A stretch of 3,308 nt of DNA, taken from the NCBI RefSeq assembly GCF_003334765.1, contig NZ_QOWT01000070.1; one strand, 5' to 3'. The stretch is from Escherichia coli. Its GTDB lineage: Bacteria; Pseudomonadota; Gammaproteobacteria; Enterobacterales; Enterobacteriaceae. The notes below the pieces were generated by a model, which saw nothing but the letters and a program-made list of their open reading frames with translations, made no database searches and was not told where the DNA came from. The translations under genes were made by a program, and so were the position numbers. Below, in pieces: positions 836 to 2,002 of the stretch; position 1 is the stretch's first letter; every line of letters begins with the position of its first letter.

Positions 836-2002
836 GTGAAACATCTGCATCGATTCTTTAGCAGTGATGCCTCGGGAGGCATTATTCTTATCATTGCCGC
901 TATCCTGGCGATGATTATGGCCAACAGCGGCGCAACCAGTGGATGGTATCACGACTTTCTGGAGACGCCGGTTCAGCTCCGGGTTGGTTCACTCGAAATC
1001 AACAAAAACATGCTGTTATGGATAAATGACGCGCTGATGGCGGTATTTTTCCTGTTAGTCGGTCTGGAAGTTAAACGTGAACTGATGCAAGGATCGCTAG
1101 CCAGCTTACGCCAGGCCGCATTTCCAGTTATCGCCGCTATTGGTGGGATGATTGTGCCGGCATTACTCTATCTGGCTTTTAACTATGCCGATCCGATTAC
1201 CCGCGAAGGGTGGGCGATCCCGGCGGCTACTGACATTGCTTTTGCACTTGGTGTACTGGCGCTGTTGGGAAGTCGTGTTCCGTTAGCGCTGAAGATCTTT
1301 TTGATGGCTCTGGCTATTATCGACGATCTTGGGGCCATCATTATCATCGCATTGTTCTACACTAATGACTTATCGATGGCCTCTCTTGGCGTCGCGGCTG
1401 TAGCAATTGCGGTACTCGCGGTATTGAATCTGTGTGGTGTACGCCGCACGGGCGTCTATATTCTTGTTGGCGTGGTGTTGTGGACTGCGGTGTTGAAATC
1501 GGGGGTTCACGCAACTCTGGCGGGGGTAATTGTCGGCTTCTTTATTCCTTTGAAAGAGAAGCATGGGCGTTCTCCAGCGAAGCGACTGGAGCATGTGTTG
1601 CACCCGTGGGTGGCGTATCTGATTTTGCCGCTGTTTGCATTTGCTAATGCTGGCGTTTCACTGCAAGGCGTCACGCTGGATGGCTTGACCTCCATTCTGC
1701 CATTGGGGATCATCGCTGGCTTGCTGATTGGCAAACCGCTGGGGATTAGTCTGTTCTGCTGGTTGGCGCTGCGTTTGAAACTGGCGCATCTGCCTGAGGG
1801 AACGACTTATCAGCAAATTATGGTGGTGGGGATCCTGTGCGGTATCGGTTTTACTATGTCTATCTTTATTGCCAGCCTGGCCTTTGGTAGCGTAGATCCA
1901 GAACTGATTAACTGGGCGAAACTCGGTATCCTGGTCGGTTCTATCTCTTCGGCGGTAATTGGATACAGCTGGTTACGCGTTCGTTTGCGTCCATCAGTTT
2001 GA
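836..2002 (+). CDS. nhaA: NhaA Na+/H+ antiporter, 388 aa, GTG start
   Basis: Translation [31 protein letters not shown]... matches E. coli NhaA throughout. Functional residues fall at canonical numbering: Asp133 (AATDIAF), Asp163/Asp164 (AIIDDLGA, codons 1322-1327), His225 (KSGVHAT), Lys300 (LLIGKPLG). About 12 hydrophobic segments. The first codon is GTG at 836-838. Confidence 0.97.

Follow-up and report, generated by a model that had tools for sequence, protein, structure and literature searches.

Does the nhaA gene of Escherichia coli really begin at a GTG codon and, if it does, what might such a start say about how much NhaA the cell makes? The question is raised by a 3,308-base stretch of E. 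coli DNA (the window), which carries hokC/mokC–sokC, nhaA and nhaR and, beyond them, what is left of a fimbrial pseudogene and one end of an IS1 element, and which occurs whole, at 100%, in many complete E. coli genomes. A sequence-only reading of the window had placed the start of nhaA at a GTG preceded by a modest purine-rich stretch, with the remarks that non-ATG starts are sometimes mis-called by automated annotation and that this one may reflect translational tuning of the antiporter. A GTG start is not in itself unusual: GTG opens about 14% of E. coli genes, or one in seven, compared with 83% that begin with ATG (Hecht et al., preprint). The position of the start, its surroundings and its history are examined here in turn, and then weighed against what is known of the control of NhaA output.

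The start codon and its reading frame

The open reading frame at positions 836-2002 (plus strand; 388 codons and a TGA) encodes the NhaA Na+/H+ antiporter (TIGR00773 / Pfam PF06965). Its product matches PDB 1ZCD over residues 1-388 (E = 1e-244) and scores 661 bits against NCBIfam TIGR00773 (cut-off 254) and 679.5 bits against NF007112 (cut-off 408). This is the same gene, with the same start, as nhaA of K-12 (b0019; UniProt P13738; PDB 1ZCD, 4AU5, 7S24 and 9RH1); the sole difference over the 388 residues is at residue 203 (1442-1444, plus strand), which is Val here and Ala in the K-12 PDB sequences. Compared with a K-12 derivative, the start region is identical from -66 onward, and the window has a G at 769, in the promoter region, where the derivative has an A. 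Downstream of nhaA, the frame at 2068-2967 matches NF008284 NhaR (603 bits, cut-off 219), and RefSeq agrees that this is nhaR.

A check of reading frames and translations shows that the nhaA frame opens with GTG 836-838 (plus strand). An in-frame TAA stands two codons 5' of it, at 830-832 on the same strand (the translation of 746-940 reads ...KEK*KVKHLH), so that positions 830-838 run TAA, AAA, GTG. The TAA closes the frame, which makes a longer NhaA N-terminus impossible, and the GTG is the first ATG, GTG or TTG downstream of that stop. The same layout is found in UTI89, in E. albertii and in Salmonella, where the nhaA gene of Salmonella enterica reads TAA-AAA-GTG as in E. coli. An upstream frame ending at TAA 830 and translationally coupled to nhaA was considered and rejected, because the interval between the in-frame stops at 800 and 830 contains no ATG, GTG or TTG. 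In the other direction, the only further in-frame ATG, GTG or TTG before residue 45 are the ATGs at 911 and 917 (codons 26 and 28; 911-919, plus strand). Both Met-26 and Met-28 sit inside a hydrophobic stretch of NhaA, which we take to be its first membrane helix.

Could one of these two ATGs be the true start, and the GTG simply the mechanical beginning of an open reading frame? ATG is the commoner start codon, used by 83% of E. coli genes, and ATG 911 is the start reportedly proposed in the original nhaA sequence paper of 1988. Taglicht, Padan and Schuldiner are said to have sequenced the N-terminus of the protein in 1991 (J Biol Chem) and to have moved the start from the originally proposed ATG to a GTG 75 bases further upstream; a shift of this size matches ATG 911, given that 911 − 836 = 75. 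Several lines of evidence stand against either ATG. Neither is preceded by a Shine-Dalgarno sequence, the best pairing with 16S rRNA being +1.9 kcal/mol at ATG 911 and -1.9 kcal/mol at ATG 917, and both lie within the hydrophobic stretch just described. Across 13 other Enterobacteriaceae sequences, codons 2-25 keep their amino acids and vary at third positions (Arg-6, for instance, is CGA, CGT or CGC, and Phe-7 is TTC or TTT); silent variation under an unchanged protein indicates that these codons are translated. In nearly all of the 80 species compared, moreover, the start codon precedes a conserved GG motif by a fixed 13-14 residues.

At the protein level, the 388-residue product is found on at least 1,000 contigs in a public protein collection, each of the 15 cluster members listed, which come from E. 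coli, Shigella, Salmonella and Citrobacter, has this same length, and a search of about 15 billion sequences returned no product initiated at Met-26 or Met-28. In a cryo-EM study of 2026, NhaA residues 1-9 were built into density, with Arg-6 and Phe-7 plugging the cytoplasmic funnel, and the epitope of antibody 1F6 was located at residues 3-10; both the density and the epitope come from plasmid-expressed 'WT nhaA' and bear on the N-terminus indirectly (PMC13408996). Initiation at Met-26 or Met-28 is therefore very improbable; the observation of a GTG at the head of the frame is confirmed, and this codon, 836-838, the sole usable start in the frame, is very probably where translation of nhaA begins.

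RefSeq/PGAP places the start of the coding sequence at this GTG in all four E. coli records inspected (300709, UTI89, the K-12 derivative HST04 and MARGA_3), and the suspicion that automated annotation may mis-call the start does not apply here. Wu et al. (2013) described the K-12 nhaA coding sequence (17,489-18,655) with a GTG start and referred to the native start as "the original GTG start codon"; theirs was the only match in a literature text search for nhaA together with GTG or GUG. The supplement of the TetRP start-site profiling data contains nhaR and no nhaA, and the TRAINSPOTTER supplements hold no nhaA entry. The GTG start is, in short, a published feature, annotated for a long time, of a transporter that ranks among the best studied in bacteria.

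Shine-Dalgarno pairing and the leader

The description of the upstream purine-rich stretch as modest proved accurate. The Shine-Dalgarno-like sequence is AAGAG at 822-826 (plus strand), of which only GAG 824-826, 9 nt before the GTG and within the usual range of 5-10 nt, pairs with the anti-Shine-Dalgarno sequence. When positions -20 to -4 are set in their most favourable pairing with the 16S rRNA 3' end (ACCUCCUUA), the resulting 3-bp duplex amounts to -2.9 kcal/mol; of 17-mers drawn at random from the window, 34% reach this value. Just 4 of 71 orthologous start sites are as weak or weaker, and the orthologue median is about -6 kcal/mol (-6.1 for orthologues with GTG and -5.8 for those with ATG). 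In 14 Enterobacteriaceae sequences, an AGAG, AAGAG or AAGGAG element is present at equal spacing to the start.

The leader at 805-835 (plus strand) is A-rich and essentially unstructured. A fold of 805-900, which comprises the leader and the first 65 nt of the coding sequence, has an energy of -16.7 kcal/mol (z = +0.19 relative to shuffles) and leaves the Shine-Dalgarno sequence and the start mostly unpaired; the left limit at 805 is a folding boundary chosen from what we take to be the P1 transcription start, and not a mapped transcript end. A riboswitch or other structured leader was rejected as a candidate, since a search of the window against Rfam at E <= 1 returned sok only and the leader fold has the z-score given above. 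With an open leader and no RNA family other than sok, initiation looks like plain loading of the 30S subunit.

Further into the gene, a locally stable 10-bp hairpin spans 863-886 (plus strand; codons 10-17), with an energy of -11.6 kcal/mol and z = -2.8. Its loop and 3' arm hold a strong Shine-Dalgarno-like GGGAGG (873-878), and two ATT codons in the nhaA frame come after it, at 881 and 884. Among the 14 Enterobacteriaceae sequences, no pair of this hairpin is changed on both sides and the signal does not rise above that of shuffles. Given this lack of covariation, the hairpin was rejected as a functional element; it is probably a by-product of the conserved D-A-S-G-G-I codons.

Conservation of the start codon

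Within E. coli the start region hardly varies. A 66-nt query covering 823-888 is found exactly in 5,412 of 5,426 complete genomes, and the one variant genome inspected retains the GTG, its mismatch falling in codon 13. When ATG is substituted for the GTG, the query has no exact match in any of the 5,426 genomes. An ancestral ATG that was misread in sequencing, or that mutated in particular strains, can be discarded as the origin of the GTG: this idea conflicts with this near-identity among E. coli genomes, with the retention of the GTG in the inspected variant, and with the presence of GTG in E. albertii, Citrobacter, Kluyvera, Pluralibacter, Enterobacter, Pseudescherichia and Salmonella.

The five bases GTGAA are invariant in 14 Enterobacteriaceae sequences from 13 species, namely the window, UTI89, E. 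albertii, three Citrobacter, Kluyvera, two Pluralibacter, isolate RIT691, E. asburiae, Pseudescherichia vulneris, Escherichia sp. ESNIH1 and Enterobacter sp. BIGb0383; the same GTG arrangement is seen in Salmonella and 12 other enterobacterial species from seven named genera. Outside Escherichia, four-fold degenerate sites in this set are only 28-39% identical to those of E. coli, and of the 216 degenerate codons whose amino acid is invariant, 7 (3%) are themselves invariant. By this measure the first base of the start codon is more stable than silent positions are, though the test is biased: the 14 sequences were selected on the strength of their GTG and amount to essentially one clade, so that the invariance may reflect a single ancestral state together with ordinary conservation of a start codon. 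Extra conservation of silent sites at the 5' end of nhaA was also looked for; codons 2-20 lie slightly above the remaining codons of nhaA (in Citrobacter, for instance, 0.53 versus 0.43), an excess too slight to be convincing, and the idea was set aside.

A wider sample gives a more mixed picture. At the homologous start site in 80 species, the codon is ATG in 46, GTG in 23, TTG in 2 and unclear in 9, which means that 25 of the 71 species with a clear start use GTG or TTG, in at least three clades. The non-ATG groups are the core Enterobacteriaceae, a Yersinia/Serratia/Photorhabdus group and the Pasteurellaceae. Fitch parsimony on a neighbour-joining protein tree with 80 tips requires at least seven start-codon changes; on the protein tree the GTG-bearing Enterobacteriaceae form one clade, and their sister lineages (Cedecea, Mangrovibacter, Siccibacter, several "Enterobacter" and one "Klebsiella" isolate) start with ATG. 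The share of GTG among orthologues, 32% against a genome background of 14%, is suggestive only, because the tips are not independent.

Translational tuning

How might such a start work? Met-1 would be decoded by the initiator tRNA pairing with GUG through a first-position wobble, and the 30S subunit would load on the A-rich, open leader, where its Shine-Dalgarno contact would be the 3-bp GAG located 9 nt upstream. GUG combined with a weak Shine-Dalgarno sequence would constitute an intrinsically weak initiation region, and the sequence of the nhaA start suggests a region of low gain. If so, NhaA output would be set mainly by transcription and by pH control of the protein. On the transcriptional side, the factors are NhaR with Na+, H-NS and sigma-S: two promoters, 141 bp apart, have been described, of which P1 needs NhaR with Na+ and also responds to H-NS, and P2 is dependent on sigma-S. 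Low translational gain may then hold basal NhaA low, NhaA being a membrane protein that is harmful in excess. A low-gain start fits with the mainly transcriptional control of nhaA and with the harm done by excess NhaA. Taken together, we regard it as highly probable that GTG 836-838 is the genuine and sole start of nhaA, with a weak Shine-Dalgarno sequence and an open leader; the low translational gain of such a region would keep the basal level of NhaA low.

The sequence-only reading went one step further in raising translational tuning of the antiporter. A putative tuning role for the GTG is plausible because overexpression of NhaA stops growth: pTrc99A-nhaA, a high-copy construct with an ATG start and a consensus Shine-Dalgarno sequence, prevents growth above 40 uM IPTG. 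The construct alters promoter, copy number, Shine-Dalgarno sequence and start codon together, and the effect of the start codon is therefore not isolated. In reporters, AUG, GUG and UUG starts give 10-100% of the AUG level (Hecht et al., preprint). Tuning is mildly supported by the conservation of the GTG and by the toxicity of overexpression; weak initiation at nhaA may have been selected for and may lower NhaA output. On the other hand, the 46 ATG-initiated orthologues among 71 imply that NhaA can do its work without a weak start codon; the Shine-Dalgarno sequences of GTG orthologues are no weaker than those of ATG orthologues, which argues against a coordinated throttle; and an A-rich, unstructured leader can initiate well in the absence of a strong Shine-Dalgarno sequence, so that the nhaA site may not be weak in vivo.

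These considerations bear on why the enteric lineage has kept its GTG. It may be a neutral historical accident of that lineage, persisting because start codons change slowly. We hold this to be a serious possibility, a little short of an even chance: some 14% of E. coli genes are GTG-initiated anyway, the GTG-bearing Enterobacteriaceae are one clade on the protein tree, ATG serves 46 of 71 orthologues, and Shine-Dalgarno strength does not differ between orthologues of the two kinds. A neutral origin sits less easily with the fact that a single G-to-A transition would yield ATG and yet the exact variant occurs in none of the 5,426 E. coli genomes, or with the absence of ATG from 14 sequences in which silent sites are saturated (3% of degenerate codons invariant). 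It also has to accommodate the rise or persistence of non-ATG starts in at least three separate clades and the harm caused by NhaA overproduction. A more ambitious proposal is that GUG and the very weak Shine-Dalgarno sequence are actively kept as a limiter of enteric nhaA, non-AUG starts having been gained or kept independently in three clades and excess protein being toxic. This proposal we consider rather unlikely; under it, NhaA synthesis could possibly also be sensitive to IF3 or to initiator tRNA.

Comparison with known systems

Like ordinary GUG-initiated genes, nhaA has a canonical start that is read as Met and, at normal spacing, a candidate Shine-Dalgarno-like element; what sets it apart is that this element is weaker than in most nhaA orthologues. 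Non-AUG starts are expected to be disfavoured by IF3. A non-AUG start is shared with infC, which is autoregulated by IF3, although GUG is a canonical start and the AUU of infC (Hecht et al., preprint) is a rare near-cognate one. In contrast to infC, we know of no feedback loop that links NhaA to initiation factors. Other bacteria have nhaA genes under a Li+/Na+ riboswitch (the nhaA-I motif), with post-transcriptional control exerted in the leader (PMC9646797). The E. coli gene is different in that it has an unstructured leader with no Rfam riboswitch match at E <= 1, and it is controlled by the protein NhaR in place of the riboswitch.

The start site matters mainly because it defines the N-terminal tail of NhaA, 9-13 residues long, described in the 2026 cryo-EM study as a plug of the cytoplasmic funnel (PMC13408996); with the tail in such a role, studies of structure and function depend on having the start right. 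As the correct GTG start is already in use everywhere, it has little meaning beyond annotation. Should GUG and the weak Shine-Dalgarno sequence indeed cap NhaA, this would be a small addition to the existing picture of NhaR with Na+, H-NS, sigma-S and pH gating, and would offer practical guidance on the expression of NhaA as a toxic membrane protein.

Other features of the window

The start call that depends on the annotation in this window is that of nhaR, not that of nhaA. Two adjacent in-frame ATGs, at 2062 and 2068, share one strong Shine-Dalgarno sequence (GGGAGAG, -8.2 kcal/mol). For nhaR, Wu et al. relied on a K-12 GenBank record with the start at 18,715 (corresponding to 2062), RefSeq/PGAP puts it at 2068, and the major start detected by ribosome profiling with tetracycline inhibition is 18,721 (+6, hence 2068). 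Although nhaA and nhaR have been described as forming a single operon, nhaAR, the gap of 59-65 nt between them contains a terminator-like GC hairpin followed by a T-run at 2017-2047 (plus strand), which suggests partial termination or attenuation and is predicted to set the nhaA:nhaR ratio.

Upstream of nhaA, a perfect TATAAT hexamer is present at 759-764 (plus strand) in the conserved region, and a five-codon ATG frame (MIRAG-stop), not in phase with nhaA, at 776-793 (plus strand); both are identical in K-12 and UTI89. The Rfam sok match (RF01794; 118 bits) covers 248-400 on the minus strand, to which the hokC/mokC mRNA also belongs (hokC frame at 98-250, minus strand). In K-12, sokC is presumably annotated on the opposite, plus strand.

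The window is not from K-12, which lacks 89 bp that lie here beside the IS1 end. These bases (3142-3230) belong to the fimbrial pseudogene remnant (3005-3232, minus strand) and adjoin the IS1 end (3233-3308). They are present in many E. coli strains and missing from the K-12 derivative HST04, and their loss in K-12 looks like an IS1-adjacent deletion. Other insertion sequences are found nearby in other strains: an IS150 lies between mokC and nhaA in strains 300709 (positions 1306-2675 of the locus in that strain) and NCTC10973, and an IS26 is present in EC4, so that the hokC-nhaA locus appears to be a hot spot for insertion sequences.
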